In this document: positions 3,038-44,139 of the stretch, in pieces
Position numbering within the stretch: position 1 is the first letter of the stretch
Layout: every line of letters starts with the position of its first letter
Source: an uncultured Candidatus Saccharibacteria bacterium
GTDB taxonomy: Bacteria; Patescibacteriota; Saccharimonadia; Saccharimonadales; JALRHH01
Direction: 5' to 3'
Length of the DNA: 64,000 nucleotides
NCBI GenBank assembly: GCA_964559915.1
Contig: CAZLJP010000002.1
Span: forward strand, 2,423 to 66,422
The notes under the pieces: model-generated
Database searches by the model: none
What the model was told of the DNA's origin: nothing
The model's input: only the letters and a program-made list of their open reading frames with translations
Made by a program: the position numbers and the translations under genes

Positions 3038-4261
3038 ATGAAACTGACATTTAAGCGGGTGAGGGCGTTTTTCTTAGATAACTGGGCGCTGGGATTATTA
3101 ATCGCAGGTGGTGCGGCCATAGCCTCTTTTCTGCTGCTTTTCAGGCTCGGTAGCTTAGTCCAGGGCCTGTCAGTAGACGAGTTTGCCCTACAACAGCAGT
3201 TAGCGCACAACCAGTTTTCTCTTGGCACAATTATCCGTGACCCATTGTTCTTGCCATACTATGTGGGCTTGTATCTACTGCAGCTCACGCCATTTCATGG
3301 CCCTACGGCAGTACGTAGCATTGGGGCATTATTCGGTCTACTGGGTAGTCTTGGCTTCTTTTATGTTCTGCGGCACTGGTACACTACTAGAATTGCGTTC
3401 TTTGGTACCGCCCTGTTCGCTACGTCTGCGTGGTTTTTGCACAGTGCACGGTATGCCTCAGAAGATGCTACATATCTATTACTGCCGCTGCTGATTGCTG
3501 GTGTTATTGCACTACAAGCCCGAACACGCGCCAAACGGGCGGTGTTAGCAGTTGTGGTATTTGGTCTATTAGCGCTGTATATACCAGGTGTTATTTGGCT
3601 CATTGCCGCTGCCTTGTTCCTTAAGCGGCAAATCATTATCAGTGCTATCAAGCTGCAACCAGGCTGGTTTAATGCCATATTAGGAGTACTCACAGCTATA
3701 TTACTCAGCCCACTAGTTGTTATGCTAGCCAAGCCGTTACGAGGTAGCAGTTGGAGCCACAATATTCTTGATTTGTATGGACTACCTACGCGGCTGCCTA
3801 GTGTTGGTGACATTGCACATAACATCAAAGATACTTTCGCTGACATCTTTATATATAGCCATAACGGGCCAATTTACACAGCCGGGCACTTACCGTGGCT
3901 TGATATAGCCACCGTAGCCCTAGTCATTATTGGTGTGTATCAGTTCATCAAACACCGGGCATTAGATCGCAGCAAATTGATAGCCATTGTCGGCATTGCG
4001 AGCTTTATTTTAGTAGCCTTGGGCGGTGAAGTACCTTTGCTAGTTTTTCTGCCATTTGTATACTTAGTCGCCGTAGAAGGACTCAAGTGGCTGCTTGACA
4101 GCTGGCTCCGTGTCTTCCCACGTAACCCGTTTGCACGCAGCTTTGGCATCGTTATTATCGTACTCATTGTCGGTACAATATCTCTGTACCAGCTCAATCG
4201 ATACTTTCTAGCGTGGGGATTTAATCCTGAGACTCGCGCGGTATTCAACAAGCTGCCATAA
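3038..4261 (+). CDS. polytopic membrane glycosyltransferase, GT-C fold (GT39/GT83 ArnT/PMT-like), tentative
   Basis: About 12 predicted hydrophobic helices; DE motif (SVDEF) in the first extracytoplasmic loop. The track ORF starts at 2966, but the ATG at 3038 lies 10 nt after TATACT (3022-3027). Confidence 0.5.
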   Translation: MKLTFKRVRAFFLDNWALGLLIAGGAAIASFLLLFRLGSLVQGLSVDEFALQQQLAHNQFSLGTIIRDPLFLPYYVGLYLLQLTPFHGPTAVRSIGALFGLLGSLGFFYVLRHWYTTRIAFFGTALFATSAWFLHSARYASEDATYLLLPLLIAGVIALQARTRAKRAVLAVVVFGLLALYIPGVIWLIAAALFLKRQIIISAIKLQPGWFNAILGVLTAILLSPLVVMLAKPLRGSSWSHNILDLYGLPTRLPSVGDIAHNIKDTFADIFIYSHNGPIYTAGHLPWLDIATVALVIIGVYQFIKHRALDRSKLIAIVGIASFILVALGGEVPLLVFLPFVYLVAVEGLKWLLDSWLRVFPRNPFARSFGIVIIVLIVGTISLYQLNRYFLAWGFNPETRAVFNKLP

Positions 4262-12714: not shown

Positions 12715-13953
12715 TTAGAGCTGTGGTATTAAGCGTGAAATAAGTGTTGGTTTACGCAGCGCCTGATGCGTTACAACCGGTACTTCGACCGAGTCCCTGC
12801 CAAAACGCATAGTCACTGCGCCCACACGACTCTCCGTAGGAGTAGGAAGCAGTAGGGTGTTGAGCTTAATTATTGGGGTCTGCGGTTTACTCCGCCACAC
12901 AACGCCAGCTACATCTGTATTAACGACCGCATCGACTGATTGGCCCGCCACAGAATAGCTGCCGACTGGCTGATTAGCTTTGATAACGGTTTGGTATTCA
13001 AACCCATCTAGTACCGAACGAATAAGTGGTACCGAGTCCCGGAGTGCTGCAGATAAGTTTGGAGCACCCATAATCACGCTTACCGCTATCACTTTGTGCC
13101 CATTAATCTCACGAACTGCCGCAGCCATAAAACAGCCTCCTGCTGCTTCTGTATTGCCAGTTTTCACGCCTACAATAGCGTCCTTGCCTAGCAGCATATT
13201 AACGTTAAATATTCTGCCAGCCACCGGTATGATAGCTTCTTTTTGTGCTGCTATTTCAGCAATAACCGGGTTATCCATGGCATTAACTGCTAGCTTTACC
13301 AGGTCTTCTGCCGTACTGACTGTTTGAGAGTCATAGCCACTGGCGTCTGCAAACTGAGTGTTAGTCATGCCAAGGGATTTAGCAAAGTTGTTTACAAAAG
13401 CCAGGTATTTATCGTCTGAGCCATATGCCCAGCGAACCAGTGTGTGTGCAATGTTATTAGCGGAGGGGAGTAGTAGTGCCTGGAGTGCCTCATACTCTGT
13501 AATTTCTTCACCGTATTGGACTGGTACATTAGACCCGTCCATTGCAATGGTGCGGTTGTACTCTTCTACGTCTGACTGATTAATTGTGATAATTGGGCCT
13601 TTTTCACCCACATTAAGCGGCTTTTGCTTGAGCACAGCCAAAGCAGTCATCACCTTAGCCACGCTGGCGGTTGGTAAGGCCTTTGGGGTACCGTGCGTAT
13701 CTAATATGCCATAGCCCACAGCGCCCACAGCTGCCTGTCCATAGTCAGGCCAGGCAATTGATACATCCTTTTTGGCCGGAATTGATACTGATACAACGTC
13801 AGCATGTAGGGCAGGAATGGGACGTAGTGCAGCAAAGCCTAGATACACAGTAATCACAACTAGTATAAAAAAGAGCTTCCCAGGGCGTTTTGTACGTTTT
13901 GCCTTAGGACGCTTAACAGCTTTAAAATCTTGCGGTTCTACCACTCTCATCAT
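12715..13953 (-). CDS. D-alanyl-D-alanine carboxypeptidase (S11, PBP5-like), membrane anchored
   Basis: 412 aa; N-terminal TM segment; SxxK (SVAK), SxN (SANN) and KTG motifs in the correct order. Confidence 0.85.
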   Translation of the reverse strand: MMRVVEPQDFKAVKRPKAKRTKRPGKLFFILVVITVYLGFAALRPIPALHADVVSVSIPAKKDVSIAWPDYGQAAVGAVGYGILDTHGTPKALPTASVAKVMTALAVLKQKPLNVGEKGPIITINQSDVEEYNRTIAMDGSNVPVQYGEEITEYEALQALLLPSANNIAHTLVRWAYGSDDKYLAFVNNFAKSLGMTNTQFADASGYDSQTVSTAEDLVKLAVNAMDNPVIAEIAAQKEAIIPVAGRIFNVNMLLGKDAIVGVKTGNTEAAGGCFMAAAVREINGHKVIAVSVIMGAPNLSAALRDSVPLIRSVLDGFEYQTVIKANQPVGSYSVAGQSVDAVVNTDVAGVVWRSKPQTPIIKLNTLLLPTPTESRVGAVTMRFGRDSVEVPVVTHQALRKPTLISRLIPQL

Positions 13954-14038
13954 TTACTAACAGTATACCGAACATAAGCGTCTTCAGTACAGCGCATTCC
14001 AAATAATATGCACTGACATTTTATTGGTGCGTTTTAGT

Positions 14039-14057
14039 TGGCTAGGGCGGAGGGATT
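14039..14057 (-). pseudogene. 3' fragment of a second tRNA-Gln (T-stem 3' strand, acceptor 3' strand CGCCCTA, then G-CCA)
   Basis: 19 nt, identical to the 3' end of the intact tRNA-Gln except for one base; that base complements the variant base 2 of the 5' fragment at 14280-14328. Confidence 0.7.
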
Positions 14058-14169
14058 AATCTATTGCTTCTGGCTGGGGCGGAGGGATTCGAACCCCCGA
14101 ATGCCAGTACCAAAAACTGGTGCCTTACCACTTGGCCACGCCCCAACGAAGCCAGAAGTAATAGATTAA
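14056..14169. repeat. 19-bp inverted repeat (14056-14074 / 14151-14169) bracketing the intact tRNA-Gln
   Basis: ttaatctattgcttctggc versus gccagaagtaatagattaa: 18 of 19 positions complementary (one A.C mismatch in the RNA). The arm at 14056-14074 includes the encoded GCCA end of the tRNA. Confidence 0.85.
14071..14145 (-). tRNA. tRNA-Gln (anticodon UUG), CCA encoded
   Basis: 75-nt cloverleaf read by hand: acceptor TGGGGCG/CGCCCCA, D arm GCCAAGTGGTAAGGC, anticodon stem CCAGT/ACTGG with loop TTTTGGT, T arm GGGGG-TTCGAAT-CCCTC; closely resembles E. coli tRNA-Gln. Confidence 0.9.
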
Positions 14170-14279
14170 TTGTCAATTATACGGGATTCGACTCACCTTC
14201 GGCGAGCCCTCGACTTCATGATTGAAAACAAGTTTTCATCAGAAGGTCGACTTGCAGCTTGCCGCAGGCAATCTTCACT

Positions 14280-14328
14280 CCGAATGCCAGTACCAAAAAC
14301 TGGTGCCTTACCACTTGGCCACGCCCTA
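14280..14328 (-). pseudogene. 5' two-thirds of a second tRNA-Gln (acceptor 5' strand TAGGGCG through the first two T-stem bases)
   Basis: 49 nt, identical to positions 1-49 of the intact tRNA-Gln except for base 2 (A instead of G); diverges abruptly inside the T stem. Confidence 0.75.
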
Positions 14329-14352
14329 ATATACTTGTAAATTAACAGATTG

Positions 14353-14381
14353 ATTCTACCCTATAATCAACTAGAAGACAA
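14353..14381 (-). promoter_or_regulatory. possible promoter for the tRNA-Gln locus (TTGTCT-N17-TAGAAT on the minus strand)
   Basis: Hexamers read on the minus strand, about 20 nt upstream of the 5' tRNA fragment. Confidence 0.3.
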
Positions 14382-14400
14382 ACTGGGGTGAGGCTTATGC

Positions 14401-14434: not shown

Positions 14435-15010
14435 ATGTCAGAAACAACTCCTATCAACTACGCCGTACGGATGGGCCTCGAACTACACGAAAATCCATTT
14501 GGGCCACTCGATATGTACGCCACCATCCCTTTGGATAAAGTGGGACGGCATCTTGCACAACAGCCAGATGATAATCTAGACTATGCAATTCTGTATTTTC
14601 CAGATAAGAATAAGTCATATTCGGGACACGACGAGCACATCTCCGTCATCAAATATACTGAAGAATATGCAGATGAGAGTAAGCACATGCTACAAAAGGC
14701 AAGCTCACTCAAGGTAGGGAATTGGGCGCTTAACAGTTACCAGGCCAAAAAAGATGCCCAGATGTACACAAAATCAGTCTACGATACGACACCTGGGTTA
14801 CGCAGACAGTGCGAACAGCTTGGGCTGCCATATATGGCAATTTTGTTCAAAAGCGCTGTAGACGCCCCAGAGATTACACACGCGACACTTCATATTGCGG
14901 CCTACGCACGGCTTAAAAGAGGTCTTAGGTTCTTTATGTCTGATATCGAACTAGGCAAAACACACTTCTATGACGGAAACGCTGCGAATGTAGCGCGAGC
15001 TATATCCTGA
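14435..15010 (+). CDS. hypothetical protein
   Basis: 191-aa ORF immediately after the promoter; no family recognised. Confidence 0.55.
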   Translation: MSETTPINYAVRMGLELHENPFGPLDMYATIPLDKVGRHLAQQPDDNLDYAILYFPDKNKSYSGHDEHISVIKYTEEYADESKHMLQKASSLKVGNWALNSYQAKKDAQMYTKSVYDTTPGLRRQCEQLGLPYMAILFKSAVDAPEITHATLHIAAYARLKRGLRFFMSDIELGKTHFYDGNAANVARAIS

Positions 15011-37079: not shown

Positions 37080-37535
37080 ATGGTTAAGAAAAAGCCCACT
37101 CAGACCAAGATTATCAGTAACCGCCGCGCCCGCCATGACTATGAGCTGGGTGATAGTTTAATTGTGGGCCTAGAACTAAATGGCCGCGAGACCAAAGCAC
37201 TTCGTATGGGTCATGGCCAGCTGCAGGGCGCCTACGTGACAGTCAAGGATAATGAGCTGTGGCTGCTAAACTGCACAATTCACGGCACCAATGGCATACC
37301 TATAGATGAGTCAGAACAAGCTCGTACCCGCAAACTACTGGCTAAACGCAAACAAATAGATGAGTTTATTGCAGCCAAACACCAGGGCAAGAGCATCATT
37401 CCACTTGAGATTCTGACTCGCGGCCGTTATATCAAAGTTCGCATATCTCTGGGTAGGGGCAAGAAGCACTATGACAAGCGCCAGACGCTCAAAAAGCGCG
37501 ACGAAGAGCGTGATGCTCGACGCCTAGCTGTCTAG
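37080..37535 (+). CDS. smpB: SsrA-binding protein SmpB
   Basis: 151 aa; ISNRRARHDYEL, GxETKALR-like motif and a basic C-terminal tail. Confidence 0.92.
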   Translation: MVKKKPTQTKIISNRRARHDYELGDSLIVGLELNGRETKALRMGHGQLQGAYVTVKDNELWLLNCTIHGTNGIPIDESEQARTRKLLAKRKQIDEFIAAKHQGKSIIPLEILTRGRYIKVRISLGRGKKHYDKRQTLKKRDEERDARRLAV

Positions 37536-37671: not shown

Positions 37672-37746
37672 TCCCGGGTGGCGCAGCGGTAGCGCAGTTG
37701 ACTGTTAATCAATTGGTCGCCGGTTCGAATCCGGCCCCGGGAGCCA
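37672..37746 (+). tRNA. tRNA-Asn (anticodon GUU), CCA encoded
   Basis: 75-nt cloverleaf read by hand: acceptor TCCCGGG/CCCGGGA, anticodon stem GTTGA/TCAAT with loop CTGTTAA, T arm GCCGG-TTCGAAT-CCGGC. Confidence 0.92.
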
Positions 37747-37752
37747 TGAAAG

Positions 37753-37778
37753 AAGACTCACATCTGTGGGTCTTTTTT
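37753..37778 (+). terminator. rho-independent terminator after tRNA-Asn
   Basis: 9-bp stem AAGACTCAC/GTGGGTCTT, 4-nt loop, T6 run. Confidence 0.8.
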
Positions 37779-37836
37779 CATGCTTCTGAGTCGGATTTGA
37801 ACCGGATCTTTTGTGAAACAAAAGCGGTTCGATAAG

Positions 37837-37876
37837 CAAGGCCACGCGCAGGAGCTAGCTCCGAGCATGGCTGCTG
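37837..37876. repeat. copy A of a 40-nt conserved core (GGAGCTAGCTCC hairpin inside a longer helix)
   Basis: 31/40 identical to 40348-40387; two base-pair positions covary between the copies. Confidence 0.6.
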
Positions 37877-37888
37877 GTTATATGTAAT

Positions 37889-37908
37889 AATCCGGCCCCG
37901 GGAGCCAT
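37889..37908 (+). repeat. exact 20-nt direct repeat of the tRNA-Asn 3' end (aatccggccccgggagccat)
   Basis: Identical to 37728-37747; att-like duplication 142 nt downstream of the tRNA. Confidence 0.9.
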
Positions 37909-37916
37909 ACAAAGAG

Positions 37917-37940
37917 CCCACCATTTTAGGTGGGTTTTTT
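37917..37940 (+). terminator. rho-independent terminator nested inside a 25-bp inverted repeat
   Basis: Stem CCCACC/GGTGGG, loop ATTTTA, T6 run. Confidence 0.7.
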
Positions 37941-37962
37941 GTATGGCTCCCGGGGTCGGATT
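37938..37962 (-). repeat. inverted copy of the tRNA-Asn 3' end motif (one mismatch)
   Basis: tttgtatggctcccggggtcggatt is the reverse complement of 37889-37913 with one substitution. Confidence 0.85.
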
Positions 37963-38291
37963 AACAGAACGTTCGATAATTTGACCGATCAGGGAAAATT
38001 ATATGCCGAAGCTAAGAATGACAAGTCCTATAAGAAATAAAGTCATTCCTGGCCTGAAGCTATAATCCGGCCAAAATCACAGGTCGCCCGGTTAGGTCTT
38101 CAAGGGCTATCGCAGGAATTCATTCTGAGAAAGCCTGTAGAAGTGCATCAGTCGGCCGATAGAGCCAATATCATAGTTAGAAATCCTAAATCGCCGAAAA
38201 TAACAGAAAAACAGACAAGACGAACGAACTTATTGCCGGCATTCTACCGATAATCAACCATAACAAATAGAAAATCCGTGTAAAATATCTT

Positions 38292-38777
38292 CTATTTACC
38301 GAATAACTGCGTTGAAAGCTCTGGTTCATCGGTTTCGGTCAGCAGATAAATACTGGCATTATCAAGTTCTTGTCTTGTACTACTATTCAAACCAAATGAC
38401 TGGCTAAAGATTTCTAGTATTTTGTGCTCTGAATCATCTCGTGCAACTCGGTTAATCGAAATCTTCTGGCATGCCAAACAGAGATGGATTAACATAATCT
38501 CACCTAGTCGATAATAGCCTTCGTGCTTAAATGTTAAGCCGATTGGCTCCATGCCGCCACAACAGGTTGCACGGCGGTCACCCTTAGTCTCGTCAACATG
38601 TTTTGACCAAAGGCACCAGTTGCAGTGGTTACGGTTGACCGTACCCATAATGTCGTTGATAACGACAAACTGTTTACAGTGCGAACAACGGAAGCCACCA
38701 GCTTTATGTTCTCGATTCCATTCCTGTTTTCTACGTTTTTTGTAATCTAATTCATCACTATACTCATAGCGTTTCAT
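38292..38777 (-). CDS. RNHCP domain-containing Cys-rich protein
   Basis: 161 aa; CSHC, NRNHCNWC, CCGG and CLAC cysteine clusters matching the RNHCP-domain pattern. Confidence 0.7.
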   Translation of the reverse strand: MKRYEYSDELDYKKRRKQEWNREHKAGGFRCSHCKQFVVINDIMGTVNRNHCNWCLWSKHVDETKGDRRATCCGGMEPIGLTFKHEGYYRLGEIMLIHLCLACQKISINRVARDDSEHKILEIFSQSFGLNSSTRQELDNASIYLLTETDEPELSTQLFGK

Positions 38778-38792
38778 CTATATCCCTACATG

Positions 38793-38817
38793 AAAAAACC
38801 AGCCAATACTGGCTGGT
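38793..38817 (-). terminator. rho-independent terminator inside the 5' leader of the RNHCP gene (attenuator segments 3:4)
   Basis: Minus-strand RNA ACCAGCCA-GTAT-TGGCTGGT followed by TTTTTT, 16 nt upstream of the SD (AGGGA) and ATG at 38777. Confidence 0.7.
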
Positions 38818-38880
38818 CATGCTGGATAGGTAGATGTACTAACTATTTTCTAAATTGATGTTCGAGTTAAGCTGTTTTTT

Positions 38881-38929
38881 GACCAGCCAGAAACTACCGC
38901 CTCGATAGCGGTGACGACTTCTGCACTGG
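38881..38929 (-). promoter_or_regulatory. candidate antiterminator (segment 2) and anti-antiterminator (segment 1) of the RNHCP leader
   Basis: RNA CTGGCTGGTC (reverse complement of 38881-38890) is a perfect 10-nt complement of terminator 5' arm GACCAGCCAG (reverse complement of 38809-38818). It can alternatively pair with CCAGTGCAGAA (reverse complement of 38919-38929). Confidence 0.45.
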
Positions 38930-39185
38930 TTGTGGTTTTATATCTGTAACTTAACATACATAGAAATTTTGGCACATAGATATATGTGCGTCAAATAATT
39001 GTTAGGTGTGAGGCTTCTATTTACAGGTATTGCAAGGTTAATATTCAATAACCCCAACAAGGTCGGTGTCAACTGTTTCTTCTATCGTGTTGGCTAGCTC
39101 GCAGTACCGGTACGCACATACGGCAACTTCATGCCAAAACTTCCTTTATCAGTCGTAACTTACACTCATCAAAATCCACACTTGC

Positions 39186-39215
39186 GGTTCGAAACTCGTC
39201 TGCTACCGGGAGCCA
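39186..39215 (+). repeat. tRNA-3'-end-like motif copy (ggttcgaaactcgtctgctaccgggagcca)
   Basis: Shares GGTTCGAA and CGGGAGCCA with the tRNA-Asn 3' end; internal 4-bp stem CTCG/CGGG with an 8-nt loop; followed by the terminator CACTTTG/CAAGGTG and TTTTTGTTT. Confidence 0.6.
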
Positions 39216-39273
39216 AGCATAAGCACTTTGTTGAAAGGCAAGGTGTTTTTGTTTAATTTGCTAAAATAATCAA

Positions 39274-39642
39274 ATGATAGAAATTGGCATTGAAACATCA
39301 ATTCTAGAAGACATCCTCTCTGGCAAAAAAACTATTGAATGCAGGCTAGGCAAGCAAAAGTTTCTGAAGATTAGGCCTGGAGACGTATTAAGCATTCGAG
39401 AAGATACATGGAAAGGTGACAAGATACTTCGCAGTATTCCAAATAGGGCAGAGATAAAGGTCACTCAAATTTTATATTTTGAAACTTTTACTGAGGCGTT
39501 CGCATCAATAGACTTTAAGGAAGCCATCCCAAGTGCAGCCTCGCCCAGTGAGGCAGTGGAAGCATATCGTAAATTTTATACTTCGGAAGACGAAAAAAAG
39601 TACGGGGTGGTAGCTATATATTTTGAACTCTTGCAGTTCTAA
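39274..39642 (+). CDS. ASCH (PUA-like) domain protein
   Basis: 122 aa; LSGKKTIECRLGK...IRPGD pattern typical of ASCH domains. Confidence 0.55.
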   Translation: MIEIGIETSILEDILSGKKTIECRLGKQKFLKIRPGDVLSIREDTWKGDKILRSIPNRAEIKVTQILYFETFTEAFASIDFKEAIPSAASPSEAVEAYRKFYTSEDEKKYGVVAIYFELLQF

Positions 39643-39664
39643 CCTCATCGACTAGAGGGAGTTA
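39636..39664 (+). repeat. tRNA-3'-end-like motif copy (gttctaacctcatcgactagagggagtta)
   Basis: 25/29 identical to 40208-40236; stem CCTC/GAGG with an 8-nt loop; overlaps the stop codon of the ASCH gene. Confidence 0.6.
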
Positions 39665-39703
39665 TAACGCTTAAGCTTTACAAACTATCATTTTTGTGGT
39701 ATT

Positions 39704-40198
39704 TTGTTTTTTATGTCAGAGGCATTCTCACCGCCAACCCAGCAAAAGCACGATGAACCGCATCTTGCACAAGATGTATTACTTTGGATAGTAAATGATT
39801 ACTTCCCGACAGAAGAAGATAGAGAGTTAGCCGAGTCTAGAAAAGCCGAAATCTTGGACGACATCCCATTTGATGTTTTGTATGCTCATTTAAATGATGA
39901 AGGTGAAGTGGGTATGGATGCCGATTATATTGGTGGTCTCCTATTACTAGCAAAAGAACGTATAGATGCAACTCCTGATGCAACCTCACAACTCACCAAT
40001 CTCAACATTATTCGCAACATGTCTGGTCACAATTTGAGTAAACCTACACCAACAGGTTTTCAATCACTCGCGCCCTCAAAGATACTGCGTGGCGAACTTG
40101 GACAAGAAACACAACTCGATTTCTTGCGAGGAATATTCTACGGAGTGCAGCTTGCAATTGAAGCCACTCAAATGGAAGATAAAGTTACTGAGGCATAA
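39704..40198 (+). CDS. hypothetical acidic protein
   Basis: 164-aa ORF (alternative ATG at 39713); no family recognised. Confidence 0.5.
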   Translation: MFFMSEAFSPPTQQKHDEPHLAQDVLLWIVNDYFPTEEDRELAESRKAEILDDIPFDVLYAHLNDEGEVGMDADYIGGLLLLAKERIDATPDATSQLTNLNIIRNMSGHNLSKPTPTGFQSLAPSKILRGELGQETQLDFLRGIFYGVQLAIEATQMEDKVTEA

Positions 40199-40206
40199 TT
40201 AGAATT

Positions 40207-40236
40207 AGTTCCAACCTCGTCGACTAGAGGGAGCCA
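40207..40236 (+). repeat. tRNA-3'-end-like motif copy (agttccaacctcgtcgactagagggagcca)
   Basis: Ends in GGGAGCCAT like the tRNA-Asn; stem CCTC/GAGG with an 8-nt loop; followed by a terminator ending GGGTCTTTTTT, as after the genuine tRNA. Confidence 0.65.
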
Positions 40237-40347
40237 TACAGAAAAGATCCTTATTCGAGGGTCTTTTTTGTATCTCCCCGTGTCGCATCCGAATTGGTGA
40301 CCGCAGATTTTCTTTAGAAAATATACAAGGTTGCCGAGTTTGGTCAT

Positions 40348-40387
40348 CAAGACCGCGCACAGGAGCTTGCTCCAAACACGGTTGCAG
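40348..40387. repeat. copy B of the 40-nt conserved core (GGAGCTTGCTCC hairpin)
   Basis: 31/40 identical to 37837-37876; same position relative to a preceding GGGAGCCAT motif and GGGTCTTTTTT terminator. Confidence 0.6.
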
Positions 40388-40592
40388 ATGTGCAACTATC
40401 CGAGCCCAAATTTGTTATTATAAGCGCAGGAATAGTAAACAGAAATCTTACGTAAACCAATTGTTTATTTTTTATGTTCAAAGTGCTACATTTACGAGAG
40501 ATGTGGCCAGGAGTCTTTGCATAAAAGCTGAGGGGGAAGACAACCTGTGACGTTATTATTTAATAAAGCTGAGATTCTAAGAAGGATGCGAG

Positions 40593-41978
40593 ATGGTAAA
40601 AGTTACAAAAATTGACACACCAGAACCAAGCAAGCATACGAAAAAGTCGTTGACCTCACTAGGTGTATTTAAGCGATGGTACACGAGGAAACCAGTAATT
40701 ATCACACTTTTGATATTTTTATTCCCTGTAGGCCTGGCACTAATGTGGAAGTTTGCTGTATGGACTAAAAAGACCAGGTGGGTTGTCACGGGGGTGACGG
40801 CGTTGTTAGTAATATTGGGTGCAATCGGTATCTACAACTCCACCCCTTCTATCGTCGTCAACAACACAAAAGGCAACAAGATAAACACTGATGATAGAGA
40901 ATATACACTTATGGGCAGAGTGTCTACGGCTAAGGGCGTAGCTAACCTGACTATTGATGGGCGATTCGTGTCCCTTACTGAAGACTCGGAATTCTCATAT
41001 AAAGTATCACTAGAAGAGGGTGATAATACTTTTAATCTAGCCTCCACAAATGAAAATGGTACATACGAAAAGTCAATACAGATACACCGTACAACCCAAG
41101 CTGAATTTGCAGCCAGAGCAGAATCAGAGAAGCTCAAAGCCGATAAAAATACCAACAAAGAGAGAAAAACTGAAGCACCAGCCCAGAAAAGCACAAATAG
41201 CGATGCATTCTACATCAACAATGCGTATTACAAAGGTGACAGTAAATACGACGTTGTCGTATACAGTTCCAGCAAGGATACTTTACAAATCTATATCAAT
41301 GACAAAAATCCAGTAAAAACCAAAGTAAACGATGAGGGTTGGGCTACGTTTAAGAATATCAAACTTAGCGGACGGTCAAAGCTGAGCTTTGCAAAAAAAG
41401 TTGGATGGATTAAGTATTCTCCTGTAAATTACGTTAAGTATATAAGCGTAGGCGGTAAGCAAGTAAAGTTAATGGATGCTGCCGAAGCGGTAGCGCTTGA
41501 TAAAGCTGATGCCGAAGCCAAAGCGGCAGCTGAAGCCAAGGCTCAAGCTGAAGCACAAGCCCAACACAACGCATATATAGGCGGCCTAGCAAAAACGTAC
41601 TGTTCAAATCATGCTGCGTGGAGAAAAATATATGTACCGCAAAGCACTTCAAAAGATGCGTGGGATAACCCGAACAAAGACTTAGTAACTACAAACCCTA
41701 AACAATCAGATTGCGTAACGATAATGACATTTTTTGTCGATGTTATGCTTTCAGAACACGTGGATAACATTGTCAATAAGAAAGTGGCAGTCGACATGAA
41801 TAGGGCTGAGGTGCTTGCATCTTGGGGTTGGCCCAATAACAACAGTAACTACTCATCGAGCTTAGGATCGTCTGATACTTGGAACTACAACACCGGAACT
41901 TGCTACTACGGTATATGTCCCAACCAGCAGTATGTTAATTTCTATAATGGCAAGGTGACAAGCACCGGAAATTACTAA
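40593..41978 (+). CDS. membrane-anchored extracytoplasmic hypothetical protein with an Ala/Glu/Lys/Gln-rich linker
   Basis: 461 aa; two N-terminal TM segments, AEAKAAAEAKAQAEAQAQ low-complexity linker, Cys-containing C-terminal domain; SD AAGGA. Confidence 0.6.
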   Translation: MVKVTKIDTPEPSKHTKKSLTSLGVFKRWYTRKPVIITLLIFLFPVGLALMWKFAVWTKKTRWVVTGVTALLVILGAIGIYNSTPSIVVNNTKGNKINTDDREYTLMGRVSTAKGVANLTIDGRFVSLTEDSEFSYKVSLEEGDNTFNLASTNENGTYEKSIQIHRTTQAEFAARAESEKLKADKNTNKERKTEAPAQKSTNSDAFYINNAYYKGDSKYDVVVYSSSKDTLQIYINDKNPVKTKVNDEGWATFKNIKLSGRSKLSFAKKVGWIKYSPVNYVKYISVGGKQVKLMDAAEAVALDKADAEAKAAAEAKAQAEAQAQHNAYIGGLAKTYCSNHAAWRKIYVPQSTSKDAWDNPNKDLVTTNPKQSDCVTIMTFFVDVMLSEHVDNIVNKKVAVDMNRAEVLASWGWPNNNSNYSSSLGSSDTWNYNTGTCYYGICPNQQYVNFYNGKVTSTGNY

Positions 41979-42065
41979 GAAACATCACGAGCAAATCTTG
42001 AGAATATACTGCATGAATTTGGCGGCTCATACTCAATATATACCTTCAGGAAGTCATCACACTTC

Positions 42066-42095
42066 AGTTCGAAACTCGTTCACTAGCGGGAGCCA
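42066..42095 (+). repeat. tRNA-3'-end-like motif copy (agttcgaaactcgttcactagcgggagcca)
   Basis: Close relative of 39186-39215, including the upstream cacactt; stem CTCG/CGGG with an 8-nt loop; a terminator follows (CTTCTG/CAGAGG then TTTTGTTTT). Confidence 0.6.
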
Positions 42096-42151
42096 TGAGC
42101 ATTGTGACTTCTGTTTCAACAGAGGTTTTGTTTTATGCTATACTCAAAATT

Positions 42152-42334
42152 ATGAGTGAAACCATTAGCAATCCAGATGGTTTAGATGAGAACTTCTGGG
42201 GACCTGCACCTACCGAAGAAGACATTGCAACTGCTGAATTAGAAATGGCAGAACGTGCTAAAAAATGGGAAACTAATCCTCCTAAAAGACCAGCGTACTA
42301 TCAACGACACCCAGACGCCTCAGAGCCTATCTAG
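42152..42334 (+). CDS. small hypothetical protein (60 aa)
   Basis: ATG 8 nt after TATACT (42138-42143); the track ORF start at 42095 lies inside the repeat/terminator and is unlikely. Confidence 0.45.
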   Translation: MSETISNPDGLDENFWGPAPTEEDIATAELEMAERAKKWETNPPKRPAYYQRHPDASEPI

Positions 42335-42340
42335 AGAAGC

Positions 42341-42370
42341 AGTCCTAACCTAGTAAGTTAGAGGGAATTA
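42341..42370 (+). repeat. diverged tRNA-3'-end-like motif copy (agtcctaacctagtaagttagagggaatta)
   Basis: Aligns with the 39636 and 40207 copies; a weaker hairpin; followed by the terminator ACCTCTG/CAGAGGT and TTTTTGTTTT. Confidence 0.45.
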
Positions 42371-42425
42371 AAAGTATTTGACCTCTGTTAACGCAGAGGT
42401 TTTTGTTTTCTGTTAGTATAAAGAT

Positions 42426-43112
42426 ATGCACAAAGAGCTATCTATTACTCTTATTGGCTCATTCAAGAAAGATCCTGAAGCGTTAAAGATTCTCTTTAAA
42501 CAACTTTCTGAGCAGTACACCATTCTCTCTCCAAAAACTATTGATTGGGTTGACCCCAATGATGAGTTCTTACGTGCTAAGCATGAAGGTGATAAGACTG
42601 TTCAAGAAATTGAAGAAGCTCACTTACATGCAATCCGCAACTCCGACTTCACGGTACTAGTTACACCCGATGGTTACGTGGGTCTTAGTGGTTCTCTAGA
42701 AGTAGGGTTTGCTCATGCGTTGGGAATACCAGTCATCGCAACAGAGACAGTCAATGATCAGACTATTGCAGCCATGGTTGACGGTATCCTTGGTGAAACA
42801 ATTGGCACTCATGATTACGGACGTGGTCTCAAAGCCTTACAGAAACAGTACGCCACTATTGCTAAGCGCAATAAATGGGACAAAGAATCTGCTCGCGACA
42901 CGATGTTGCTTTTAACCGAAGAAGTCGGTGAGTTGGCTCGAGCAATTCGCAAACACGAGGGCCTGGACAGAGATGGTGGATTTGACGTTCAGCTGAGCGA
43001 AGAACTGGCGGATGTACAGATATACTTGGCGCACTTAGCAAACACTGTTTCTATTGATCTTGGCGATGCGGTCACTAATAAGATAATAAAGAACCAGAGT
43101 AAAAAGACATGA
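42426..43112 (+). CDS. fusion protein: nucleoside 2-deoxyribosyltransferase-like N-terminal domain plus MazG-type nucleotide pyrophosphohydrolase C-terminal domain
   Basis: 228 aa; C-terminal EEVGELARAIRK...EELADVQIYLAHLAN is a MazG signature; N-terminal IGSF...AIRNSDFTVLV...GYVGLSGSLEVGFAHALGIPV resembles the NDT/Rcl-like Rossmann fold. Confidence 0.55.
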   Translation: MHKELSITLIGSFKKDPEALKILFKQLSEQYTILSPKTIDWVDPNDEFLRAKHEGDKTVQEIEEAHLHAIRNSDFTVLVTPDGYVGLSGSLEVGFAHALGIPVIATETVNDQTIAAMVDGILGETIGTHDYGRGLKALQKQYATIAKRNKWDKESARDTMLLLTEEVGELARAIRKHEGLDRDGGFDVQLSEELADVQIYLAHLANTVSIDLGDAVTNKIIKNQSKKT

Positions 43113-43136
43113 ATTCATAACCCGTTCTGGTTATGC

Positions 43137-43164
43137 TTGCAGTTATTTCTTATAGGCATACAAT
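43137..43164 (+). promoter_or_regulatory. promoter TTGCAG-N16-TACAAT with upstream GGTTATGC
   Basis: Member of the TTATGCTTGC motif set; the downstream gene has a strong AGGAGGAGG SD. Confidence 0.4.
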
Positions 43165-43213
43165 ATTTAAAATTCTGACGAATGTTTTTAGATAAACCAT
43201 AGGAGGAGGCAAT

Positions 43214-43588
43214 ATGTTTGGTCACAAGAACGAAGAATGGAAAACTCCAGTTGGTGAACTCTTTGTACATAGTCATGTCTATGAATCACAAGATGGAGCC
43301 GAACATGAAGGACTTGAAGAAGTCACCACAAGAAGTGCTTTCAATTTCTCCAAGAAACTCGGCCGCTTAAGACAAAAGCACGCCCCAGAATCACAGGCCA
43401 TTATCCCAACTGGTGTCGATGAGATAGGGGAGTTTATTGCTGACTCATTCGGCAAACTGCGTGAAGCCTCAATGCAGCAATCTGATTTTATGTCAGGTGA
43501 TGTCTTTGTTGTTGGCAAGAACGGTAGTTTGCGGCGTATTAATGAAGATGGCTCACAACAACAAATCATTGAACCTAGCCGCGTATAG
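43214..43588 (+). CDS. hypothetical protein
   Basis: 124-aa ORF with a strong SD; no family recognised. Confidence 0.55.
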   Translation: MFGHKNEEWKTPVGELFVHSHVYESQDGAEHEGLEEVTTRSAFNFSKKLGRLRQKHAPESQAIIPTGVDEIGEFIADSFGKLREASMQQSDFMSGDVFVVGKNGSLRRINEDGSQQQIIEPSRV

Positions 43589-43621
43589 CAATAGTCGGAG
43601 AGGTTTTTGTTTTGGTTATGC

Positions 43622-43650
43622 TTGCAACTGGGCACGAGATTTGAAATATT
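43622..43650 (+). promoter_or_regulatory. promoter TTGCAA-N17-AATATT with upstream GGTTATGC, 6 nt before the ATG
   Basis: Read directly; leaderless geometry. Confidence 0.4.
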
Positions 43651-43656
43651 AAAGTC

Positions 43657-43941
43657 ATGTGTGAATTCAACAGCCCTTACTCTCTATCAAGTGGCCATTG
43701 CTTAGACAACCCAGCAGCGCCCAGCTACACCAGAACCGAGCCTATCGTACAGTCACCCCAGGCTTGGGAAACACGAGCGGCCGAGCTAGATGAAAGTCAT
43801 GCTGCAGTTATTGCCCAGGCAGAGAACGATGCAGCTGCACTGCAAGCTGATGTGCACTTTTATAAGTCACTTGGTTCAAAATTCATCGGGATTGCACTGA
43901 GGCCTGGCACTGGCCCAACAGTAAAAATCTGGGAACATTAG
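43657..43941 (+). CDS. hypothetical protein
   Basis: 94-aa ORF; no family recognised. Confidence 0.45.
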   Translation: MCEFNSPYSLSSGHCLDNPAAPSYTRTEPIVQSPQAWETRAAELDESHAAVIAQAENDAAALQADVHFYKSLGSKFIGIALRPGTGPTVKIWEH

Positions 43942-43942
43942 G

Positions 43943-43974
43943 ATTAGCCCCGCCCTCGTCCACCAGGGAACCCA
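43943..43974 (+). repeat. most diverged tRNA-3'-end-like motif copy (attagccccgccctcgtccaccagggaaccca)
   Basis: Stem CCCT/AGGG with an 8-nt loop; followed by agcataagcact, the same 12-mer that follows the 39186 copy. Confidence 0.45.
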
Positions 43975-44139
43975 GCATAAGCACTGTACGATTTTTGTAA
44001 TCTATGGTATAATTTACCCAAGCAAGTGGTTATTATAGCCTCTCCGTCTCTATAACTAGTCCTTCAAAAGACTTACTATCATTTTCGGGCAGACATACTA
44101 AGTATGAGTGATATTAAGTAAAAGCAAGGATACACAATT

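Follow-up and report, generated by a model that had tools for sequence, protein, structure and literature searches.

A conserved structured RNA lodged in a broken tRNA-Gln copy around an intact tRNA-Gln gene in Saccharibacteria

A 64,000-nt stretch of an uncultured Candidatus Saccharibacteria bacterium (assembly GCA_964559915.1, contig CAZLJP010000002.1; hereafter the window) carries, on its minus strand, an intact transfer RNA (tRNA) gene for glutamine nested between the two halves of a second, broken copy, with an 86-nt structured RNA module, here called element X, lodged in the T arm of the broken copy. All six pieces of this arrangement that an earlier note on the sequence had described are present where it placed them, and the layout is borne out by ARAGORN, Rfam and a repeat search. 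The functional gene at the locus is the inner tRNA-Gln(UUG) (14145-14071, minus strand, as are all features of the locus unless stated), which is called by ARAGORN and has a G2:C71 pair and an encoded CCA. It has a full cloverleaf with anticodon and clears the Rfam tRNA gathering threshold (RF00005, 63.9 bits versus 29, E = 3.4e-13). Two non-tRNA Rfam matches inside it (mascRNA-menRNA, 18.6 bits, E = 1.2; Plastid-psbl-rps4, 15.1 bits, E = 7.7) are probably due to chance.

The broken copy, a former tRNA-Gln(UUG), opens with a 51-nt 5′ fragment (14328-14278, tRNA positions 1-52) that differs from the inner gene only at A2 and A51, and within which Rfam reports a sub-threshold tRNA match to the D and anticodon arms (14319-14287). 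The earlier note had ended this fragment at 14280 with base 2 as the sole difference; the fragment is real, but it runs on through G49, G50, A51 and G52 to 14278 and so includes the A51 mismatch. Element X follows at once (14277-14192), as delimited by a covariance-model score, an alignment and RNAalifold, and consists of three hairpins (P1, P2 and P3) closed by the T stem. It occupies the place of G53-T54 in the outer tRNA-Gln, and directly 3′ of it stand the T-loop remnant and the 3′ strand of the T stem, TCGAATCCC (14191-14183). About 7 nt of the T arm, GGGTTCG, had been thought missing; TCG is present, in the sequence directly after X, and only G53-T54 are replaced. Similarly, the 110 nt once described as hairpin-rich are indeed structured, but they resolve into the 86-nt conserved element, the T-loop remnant and a stretch with TATAAT and TTGACA.

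Between the remnant and the inner gene lie a spacer, GTATAATTGACA (14182-14171), in which TATAAT can be read, and the 5′ arm of a leader-trailer helix (14170-14150; 21 nt, 95% complementary), which ends in TGGC and pairs with the GCCA at the tRNA 3′ end. A 5-nt spacer, TTCGT, then precedes the tRNA, its first T (14150) being also the last base of the arm. The 3′ arm (14075-14055) takes in the AGCCA of the tRNA and runs into the start of the trailing fragment, which is the 3′ remainder of the former tRNA-Gln, AATCCCTCCGCCCTAGCCA (14057-14039; positions 58-76, with U71). The repeat search recovered a 67-nt direct repeat (14263-14329 versus 14080-14146, 87%), the 19-nt repeat of the 3′ end (14039-14057 versus 14071-14089, 95%) and the inverted repeat (14055-14075 and 14150-14170; 21 nt, 95%). 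The 19-mer occurs at just these two sites in the window, against a chance expectation of 0.00, and AATCCC is found twice (14188-14183 and 14057-14052). The outer fragments carry A at base 2 and T at position 71, where the inner gene has G and C.

We scanned metagenome data with a pattern for X consisting of a core, TGAAAACTTGTTTTCA, a gap and then TCGAA, which returned 59 loci, and built a covariance model, R1, from 21 distinct homologs (alignment A1). With R1, 26 of the 59 loci, together with the window and three related loci (L001, L002 and L068; loci are designated by L numbers throughout), scored 50-124 bits on the sense strand and 12-27 bits on the antisense strand, and the remaining 33 were chance matches. 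The X of the window scored 113.8 bits (E = 3e-31), and no other copy turned up in the 64 kb; of the further copies for which the earlier note had proposed a search, those of X thus exist elsewhere but not here, and the 222-nt insert of that note is not one unit. As every homolog outside the syntenic set was collected with a single fixed 16-mer, the family must be broader and more variable than this sample shows.

In the RNAalifold structure of A1, bases of the T stem close off hairpins P1, P2 and P3, of which P2 is long and P3 is capped by a GNRA-like loop. Folding with homologs, likewise proposed beforehand, proved informative: 22 of 38 pairs show compensatory changes, as opposed to 3-8 such pairs in slid controls; 95.6% of cells are paired, versus 30-50% with slid partners; and none of 500 shuffles reached the observed values. 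Almost throughout the alignment, several pairs are G-U (20 of 21 sequences at columns 87-103), and these hold on the tRNA-sense strand only. Directly 3′ of X, TCGAA is invariant among the 21 aligned homologs and TCC comes next in most of them. By its compensatory changes and its strand specificity, in homologs gathered with a pattern that fixed the P2 tip, X is a conserved structured RNA.

The family appears to be previously undescribed and, as far as sampled, confined to Saccharimonadia; at the most divergent locus, the best named match of the flanking protein is in Saccharimonadales. Rfam 15 returned no match to X, to modules X2 and X3 or to the leader 'U' described below (E ≤ 10 in the window, E ≤ 1 at seven related loci). 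X was likewise unmatched in phage and plasmid collections, where its region was searched with blast, and in viral contigs, which were scanned with the pattern. Literature searches on T-loop insertions, disrupted or split Patescibacteria tRNAs, structured RNAs of the Candidate Phyla Radiation and tRNA fragments with integrases turned up nothing like X, the one related paper being about group I introns of the anticodon loop. Two readings of its content were rejected: a hammerhead ribozyme, suggested by CUGAUGA in the window, which is not conserved (CUCUUGA and CACUUGA in homologs), and a small open reading frame (ORF) in P2, ATG...TGA with 7 codons in the window, which is not conserved either.

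In all sampled copies the context of X is tRNA-derived, nearly always a T arm and rarely a D loop, with an intact tRNA adjoining. T-arm copies stand after (C/T)GGGG and before TCGAAT(C)C(C), with G53-T54 of the T arm replaced; the T arm of the intact neighbour reads GRGGGTTCGAATCCCTY. A clean insertion with target-site duplication was rejected, as two bases are replaced rather than simply parted. X lies truly within the D loop in L058 and L040, and an exceptional copy upstream of tRNA-Arg in L017 has tRNA positions 1-25 as its left flank, with 26-53 deleted. The hosts comprise Gln-UUG, Gln-CUG, Arg-UCU, Arg-CCG, Ser-GGA, Ser-GCU, Ser-UGA and Tyr, and 22 of 22 host tRNAs share the T arm G(G/A)GGGTTCGAATCCCT(C/T), whereas adjacent X-free tRNAs have other T arms.

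Two layouts can be told apart, each with about 12 distinct loci. In type A, which includes the window, the 5′ part of a tRNA is followed by X, a -10-like box and an intact copy of the same tRNA, and most loci have a short antisense T-arm piece, GATTCGAACCC, between X and the box. Type B runs from an intact tRNA through a terminator, an antisense tRNA 3′ part, a few nucleotides and the sense 5′ strand of a T arm to X and a complete 3′ end through CCA; a second terminator-like hairpin closes the unit in L004, L042, L068, L001 and L017, and in L004 the tRNA and the X unit are each followed by a terminator on the sense strand. One tRNA has X on both sides in L017 and in L040.

Similarity among X copies cuts across the identity of their tRNAs. 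X is 93% identical between L008 (Gln-CUG) and L043 (Arg-UCU) and 91% between L042 (Gln-UUG) and L059 (Gln-CUG); L001 and L068 share 97% of X with tRNAs only 88% identical, whereas the window and L002 share 84% of X with identical tRNAs. The two copies within L017 have diverged to about 75%. Because of this cross-cutting pattern, X appears to have been copied between tRNA genes, or homogenised within genomes, over evolutionary time.

A tRNA-Asn locus elsewhere in the window (37672-37962, plus strand) has the same architecture, ordered as tRNA, terminator, antisense T-arm copy, sense T-arm 5′ part bearing a T-loop insert of about 55 nt (containing GCAAGG), 3′-end copy, second terminator and antisense 3′-end copy. 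The 19-nt 3′-end copy is exact (37889-37907) and the antisense one has 1 mismatch (37944-37962). The insert was tried as a member of the X family, but R1 gives it only 6.5 bits and membership is not demonstrable. The post-tRNA terminator of this locus (37747-37782), like those in L001, L004, L017, L035, L040, L059, L061 and L068, pairs the discriminator base with CCA (NCCA) and an A-rich stretch to a T-rich stretch and TGGN further downstream; such a hairpin sequesters the tRNA 3′ end, and the TGGN often runs on into the antisense tRNA 3′ copy.

The nested arrangement is not peculiar to one assembly. A separate Logan assembly (L063, SRR8931239) matches the window base for base from the inner 3′ end across the 13-nt spacer and through the trailing fragment, which disposes of the assembly artefact that had been raised as a danger; its contig breaks exactly at the end of the duplicated 5′ part, as expected because a de Bruijn graph breaks at repeats. 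Independent data sets contain the same layout in L002, L065 and, without a trailing fragment, L060. With these three related genomes sharing it, the nested layout is old and not an artefact.

Comparison with relatives, which the earlier note had called for, revealed nested, inverted-repeat-only, X-downstream and module-free states at the syntenic locus. Nearby genes in the window encode an S11 peptidase (12715-13953, minus strand), a hydrolase, glycosyltransferases and a beta-lactamase-like protein. Homologs of the peptidase, at about 60-64% identity, belong to Saccharimonadia genomes, and all the relatives fetched have a tRNA-Gln(UUG) upstream of the peptidase gene, on the opposite strand relative to the window. 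The whole tRNA-Gln module with its promoter (~14030-14390) is therefore inverted in the window with respect to L001, L002, L003, L065, L068, L069, L071, L072 and L073; repeat search and inspection found no repeats beyond about 5-10 nt at the borders of the inverted segment. A tree of the peptidases sets L068, L003, L069 and L001 against the window, L065 and L002.

The window, L001, L002 and L068 all have X at the syntenic tRNA-Gln locus; the peptidases beside it share 60-69% identity, and hairpin P1 differs among these four by compensatory changes. L002 is nested, with an inner tRNA identical to that of the window and an extra 35-nt hairpin in the outer anticodon loop (~3840-3875). L065 is nested too; X has shrunk there to a short palindrome, and the outer copy has hairpins in its D and anticodon loops (~2180-2265). 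In both the trailing fragments are homologous but degenerate. L003 has the inverted-repeat-flanked tRNA alone, with recognisable remnants of the spacer. L001, L066, L067 and L068 read tRNA, terminator, antisense T arm, short 5′ piece, X and complete 3′ end; L069 and L071 have this layout with module X3 in place of X, and L072 has the syntenic locus without any module. No single inversion or deletion between repeats interconverts the nested, X-upstream and X-downstream layouts; such one-step schemes were tried and rejected. In L060 the anticodon stem of the outer fragment has decayed, as antisense T-arm copies do, and X is intact.

Other features of these loci deserve mention in their own right. 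The outer relic stems in L002 and L065 remain close to the functional gene, and the loops of the tRNA relic seem to be preferred sites of hairpin gain. Module X3 (L069 ~1130-1230, minus; L071 ~880-1000, minus; L061 ~870-960, plus) is undetected by R1; it has a P1 hairpin as in X (GGGGUCC AGU GGACCCC type) and different 3′ hairpins, and lies between an antisense T-arm piece, GGATTCGAAC, and a sense piece, TCGAATCC. A structured leader, 'U', of about 110 nt is conserved between the promoter and the tRNA-Gln or outer relic (L065 2290-2400, minus; L068, L070 and L072) and contains two covarying hairpins (CCGCGA/TCGCGG and TCACGA/TCGTGA).

The comparison also explains the alleles and the composition of the locus. 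A2:U71 (TAGGGCG...CGCCCTA) is the functional tRNA-Gln allele at the syntenic locus in L001, L003, L069, L071 and L072, which upholds the view that the outer pieces are two halves of one former tRNA-Gln. The difference between A2:U71 and G2:C71 that the earlier note had read as compensatory is real, but since the outer halves carry the allele functional in sister lineages, it can be explained as retained ancestry and needs no selection on the outer pairing. The same note had pictured a single 222-nt insertion bringing its own tRNA. That segment is composite: X occurs without an enclosed tRNA at about 12 loci, and the inverted-repeat-flanked tRNA occurs without X in L003 and L065. Because L003 has the helix without X, the inverted repeat is part of this lineage's tRNA-Gln gene, not of an insert.

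A helix of 20-24 bp encloses the tRNA in six genomes (the window, L002, L003, L060, L065 and L026). Its 5′ arm, ending in TGGC, pairs with GCCA and the trailer, and a spacer of 3-6 nt separates it from tRNA position 1. Beyond TTCTGGC the arms are unrelated between genomes, yet their pairing is kept with 0-2 mismatches, and the helix of L060 includes five G-U pairs. In length and covariation it would fit, in all six genomes, a putative ribonuclease (RNase) III-type processing helix. When the 306-nt region was folded as one RNA, the minimum free energy was -114.5 kcal/mol (z = -3.5), and in the predicted fold the trailing fragment pairs over 8 bp with the 5′ acceptor strand of the outer copy, the helix encloses the inner tRNA, and two hairpins correspond to P2 and P3 of X; the P1 region folded otherwise. 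A reading of the inverted-repeat-flanked tRNA as a transposon with terminal inverted repeats, or a miniature inverted-repeat transposable element, was rejected, as the arms differ completely between genomes and the left arm is not terminal, with 12 nt beyond it; a target-site duplication could be seen in the AATCCC repeat alone.

Upstream of the outer fragment lies the sole sigma-70-like match that a promoter scan found on the minus strand of the locus (14381-14353): a predicted -35 box, TTGTCT, a 17-nt spacer and a -10 box, TAGAAT, ending at 14353 and followed by CAATCTGTTAA, with 9 of 12 consensus positions matched. The motif TA(G)AATCTATCTGTTAA recurs in L002, L065, L071 and L035, and stands upstream of tRNA genes in relatives. 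The TATAAT of the spacer at 14182-14171, which is without a -35 box and was not called by the scan, may be a second promoter or merely leader sequence; its counterparts are TCCCGTATAATTAACA, conserved, in L002, GTATACT in L060 and CACATTAACAAT in L065. Just downstream of the trailing fragment, a hairpin (14032-14008; strand unspecified) might conceivably mark the end of the transcription unit; it is terminator-like on the plus strand only, and on the minus strand ATTATTTGG follows it.

We tentatively favour a reading, a little short of probable in our estimate, in which the locus is one transcription unit whose tRNA-derived scaffold carries X as a selected structured RNA and whose tRNA is excised by way of the helix. 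The promoter at 14381-14353 would drive a precursor that runs from the outer 5′ part through X and the leader arm to the tRNA, and on through the trailer arm and the trailing fragment. The leader-trailer helix of about 20 bp would sequester the CCA end and be cut by a double-strand-specific RNase such as RNase III, after which RNase P and 3′ trimming would free tRNA-Gln. The second selected product would be X on its tRNA-derived scaffold, with its three hairpins and the closing T stem meeting in a four-way junction, and the strongly conserved bases of that junction would suit protein binding. Historically, X would have been copied among tRNA genes sharing one T arm, each time into a redundant copy that arose from local sense-antisense-sense duplications, and the outer halves in the window would represent the ancestral A2:U71 allele. 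We favour this reading because of the strand-specific covariation, the retention of X at one locus while proteins diverged to about 60% identity, the low copy number, the decay of the surrounding debris with X intact, and the sense terminators. A co-transcribed precursor with a processing helix had been among the alternatives of the earlier note, and the helix kept in six genomes, the upstream promoter match and the predicted fold lend it support; co-transcription, the processing enzymes and X as the selected product itself are what we infer.

Several observations weigh against the favoured reading. X has been lost from the same architecture without visible consequence in L065, L003 and L072, and replaced by another module, X3, in L069 and L071, and is therefore dispensable in some lineages. 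Its similarity across tRNA identities (L008 and L043; L001 and L068) would be the pattern of a mobile element. The invariance of the P2 tip is partly an artefact, since the search pattern required it; homologs found by synteny or with R1 vary there, with pairing kept (GAAGAC in L068, GCAAAC/GUUUGC in L058, a UCG loop in L017). Finally, helix mismatches outside L060 are about equally often A-C and G-U, and gene conversion from one arm to the other, not selection on the RNA, could account for the identity of the arms.

A live possibility, though an unlikely one, is that X is now or was recently a selfish, non-autonomous insertion element that targets the elbow loops of tRNAs, with the window recording an old insertion beside a surviving copy. 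Such an element would recognise GRGGG/TTCGAATCCCTY in the T arm (the slash marking the junction), and occasionally GG/T in the D loop; insertion would kill the gene hit, so survivors would sit in or with a duplicated tRNA copy, and the fold would serve propagation, through single-stranded DNA hairpins, an RNA intermediate or a ribozyme, rather than the host. The constancy of the site (G53-T54 replaced) across Gln, Arg, Ser and Tyr contexts, the single T-arm sequence of the 22 host tRNAs beside X-free neighbours that differ, and the D-loop copies of L058 and L040 all suit it, as do the similarity of X across tRNA identities (97% in X and 88% in tRNA between L001 and L068), the presence of every X in a truncated pseudo-tRNA beside an intact gene, and the loss of X without replacement in some lineages; palindromic sense-antisense T-arm junctions by X resemble the footprints of hairpins or template switching. 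However, the eight scanned products flanking X in the window include no transposase, integrase, reverse transcriptase or homing endonuclease, and at the syntenic loci, where Pfam labels alone were consulted, none is listed. Copy number is low and copies within a locus have diverged, there are neither terminal inverted repeats nor a clean target-site duplication, and the left flanks vary (GGGG, AAGCG, AGAG), unlike the tetranucleotide target of IS200/IS605-type elements. X has also stayed in place as the proteins beside it diverged to about 60% identity, no filled and empty pair of otherwise near-identical loci was found, and viral, phage and plasmid collections yielded no match. The selected-RNA and selfish readings are compatible, and X may be an old mobile module that is now domesticated.

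A bolder form of mobility, which we consider quite unlikely, would make X the founding member of a novel class of bacterial elements that reside at the tRNA elbow. Such an RNA module, which might be catalytic or intron-like, would copy itself specifically into the T loop, and also the D loop, of tRNA genes with one particular T-arm sequence, needing no protein of its own. Saccharimonadia would then tolerate X, or exploit it, by retaining it on duplicated tRNA scaffolds processed together with the real tRNA.

It is improbable that the tRNA fragments and X are scars of tRNA-targeting integrative elements, such as a phage, an island or a remnant like a cis-mobilizable element (CIME), in which repeated crossover by an integrase in the T loop left the 3′-end repeats and X is a conserved part of an attP arm after interior deletion. 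The 3′-end direct repeat does start in the T loop at both tRNA loci of the window (AATCC...CCA, 19 nt), the X-downstream loci show the classical attL ... attR order of tRNA, about 150 bp and 3′-part repeat, and the module inversion in the window is possible by way of the palindromic TTCGAA core of the T loop. Yet the repeats enclose only 13 nt at tRNA-Gln and 142 nt at tRNA-Asn, and no integrase, transposase or other element gene was found in the scanned parts of the window, which near the two tRNAs covered 16 ORFs. An att arm would not yield RNA-type compensatory changes with strand-specific G-U pairs over three hairpins, X-upstream loci duplicate the 5′ part of the tRNA, which 3′-restoring integrases do not produce, and phage, plasmid and viral contigs showed no similarity. 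The scar of a larger element, another suggestion of the earlier note, finds no support either: eight neighbouring products without an integrase, X unmatched in those collections, and an architecture conserved at about 60% peptidase identity.

Still less plausible, indeed very improbable, is an outer gene that is expressed as a second tRNA-Gln, with X and the inner tRNA spliced out as an intron to give an A2:U71 isodecoder. The predicted fold joins the outer acceptor strands, and the helix resembles those that assemble the split tRNAs of Nanoarchaeum. Patescibacteria do carry unusual tRNA introns (PMC13011429). The outer T stem is damaged, however, with A51 in place and G53-T54 absent, and its homologs are more damaged still: the trailing fragment of L002 lacks one base and its outer anticodon loop has a 35-nt insertion, all three loops are disrupted in L065, and L060 has no trailing fragment. 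For these reasons the outer copy cannot be a tRNA. No locus has an X-bearing tRNA that is both full-length and the sole copy, inspection by eye, with no formal search, revealed no bulge-helix-bulge motif at the boundaries of X, and the introns described in Patescibacteria are group I introns of the anticodon loop, with the T loop unmentioned (PMC13011429). A chance similarity, or a chimeric join of two strains' tRNA-Gln alleles, conceivable in a metagenome-type assembly where A2:U71 and G2:C71 could stem from two strains, is extremely improbable, given an independent assembly in which the inner 3′ end, the spacer and the trailing fragment are joined in the same way and the contig stops at the edge of the repeat, the nested order in three other data sets, and the chance expectation of 0.00 for the repeat.

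Elsewhere in the window, a 191-amino-acid ORF (14435-15010, plus strand) without a Pfam match diverges from the tRNA module. The region at 38000-44000, directly downstream of smpB and tRNA-Asn, has a G+C content of 0.41-0.44, versus about 0.47 elsewhere, and encodes RNHCP, ASCH and MazG/deoxyribosyltransferase-like proteins, with no integrase among the scanned ORFs; it is a possible island. Despite the presence of smpB (37080-37535), a tmRNA gene was not among the ARAGORN calls for the window.

If the favoured reading is true, Saccharibacteria, whose genomes are among the most reduced of bacteria, maintain a conserved structured RNA that lives only in tRNA-derived scaffolds by real tRNAs, which would constitute a new RNA family with an unusual genomic habit and would add an example of a bacterial tRNA inside a long leader-trailer helix. 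Standard annotation tools skip the tRNA halves, the antisense tRNA pieces and the unannotated RNA of these loci. R1 and the roughly 30 loci provide a testable object for the duplication, disruption and repair of tRNA genes in ultra-small genomes.

Where they can be tested, the defining features of each of the nearest known systems are lacking in X. Bacterial rRNA operons have leader-trailer processing stems that are substrates of RNase III, and like them the tRNA-Gln helix is formed by about 20 bp from the flanks, covaries and encloses a mature RNA. It differs in enclosing a single tRNA and pairing with its CCA end, and in that its cleavage is presumed; to our knowledge, no CCA-pairing leader-trailer helix around a single bacterial tRNA has been described. 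Palindrome-associated transposable elements (PATEs) derived from IS200/IS605 and repetitive extragenic palindromic (REP) elements are small, protein-less and hairpin-rich, and X shares these traits together with a fixed orientation and the lack of a target-site duplication. Unlike them, X has a very low copy number, occurs only in tRNA-derived loops, has no constant left tetranucleotide and has three hairpins that covary in the manner of RNA. An IS200/IS605-type miniature element would have a constant left-hand target of 4-5 nt, subterminal hairpins and many dispersed copies; X as such an element was rejected on its varying left flanks, its one copy in 64 kb and its restriction to tRNA-derived sites.

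Group I introns have a P1-P9 core and span a few hundred nucleotides. In Patescibacteria tRNAs, self-splicing group I introns interrupt the anticodon loop at position 35/36 and others (PMC13011429). Like X, these are structured RNA insertions in tRNA genes of the same phylum-level hosts, and they escape standard annotation; unlike them, X is short, sits in the T loop and has host copies that cannot yield a tRNA. With only 86 nt and no Rfam Intron_gpI match, X was rejected as a group I intron. Integrative elements that target tRNA genes leave attL and attR repeats of the tRNA 3′ end, and remnants of the CIME type are known. X loci share with them the 3′-part direct repeats starting in the T loop and the arrays of fragments downstream of tRNA genes. 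Sites of the attB type have been reported in the tRNA T loop (PMC1762012). The X loci differ in that no integrase or cargo was found in them, some duplicate the 5′ part, and the neighbour of the repeat is a structure that covaries like an RNA.

Disrupted and split tRNA genes are also known from archaea, and in Thermoproteales non-canonical introns have spread among tRNA genes. Introns of the archaeal type go with an EndA-type endonuclease and with a bulge-helix-bulge motif wherever exon and intron meet. Like X, archaeal tRNA introns include related short insertions at one loop position across tRNA identities, T and D loops among them, and such same-position insertions point to copying from tRNA gene to tRNA gene. 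In split tRNAs, as at the locus in the window, helices from flanking sequence join the parts of a tRNA. Unlike the archaeal introns, X has a bacterial host and, by inspection, no evident bulge-helix-bulge motif; its copies are truncated pseudo-tRNAs beside an intact gene, and it is larger, with a multi-hairpin fold of its own. If the reading proposed here is true, X would represent a bacterial counterpart of the spread of introns among archaeal tRNA genes.

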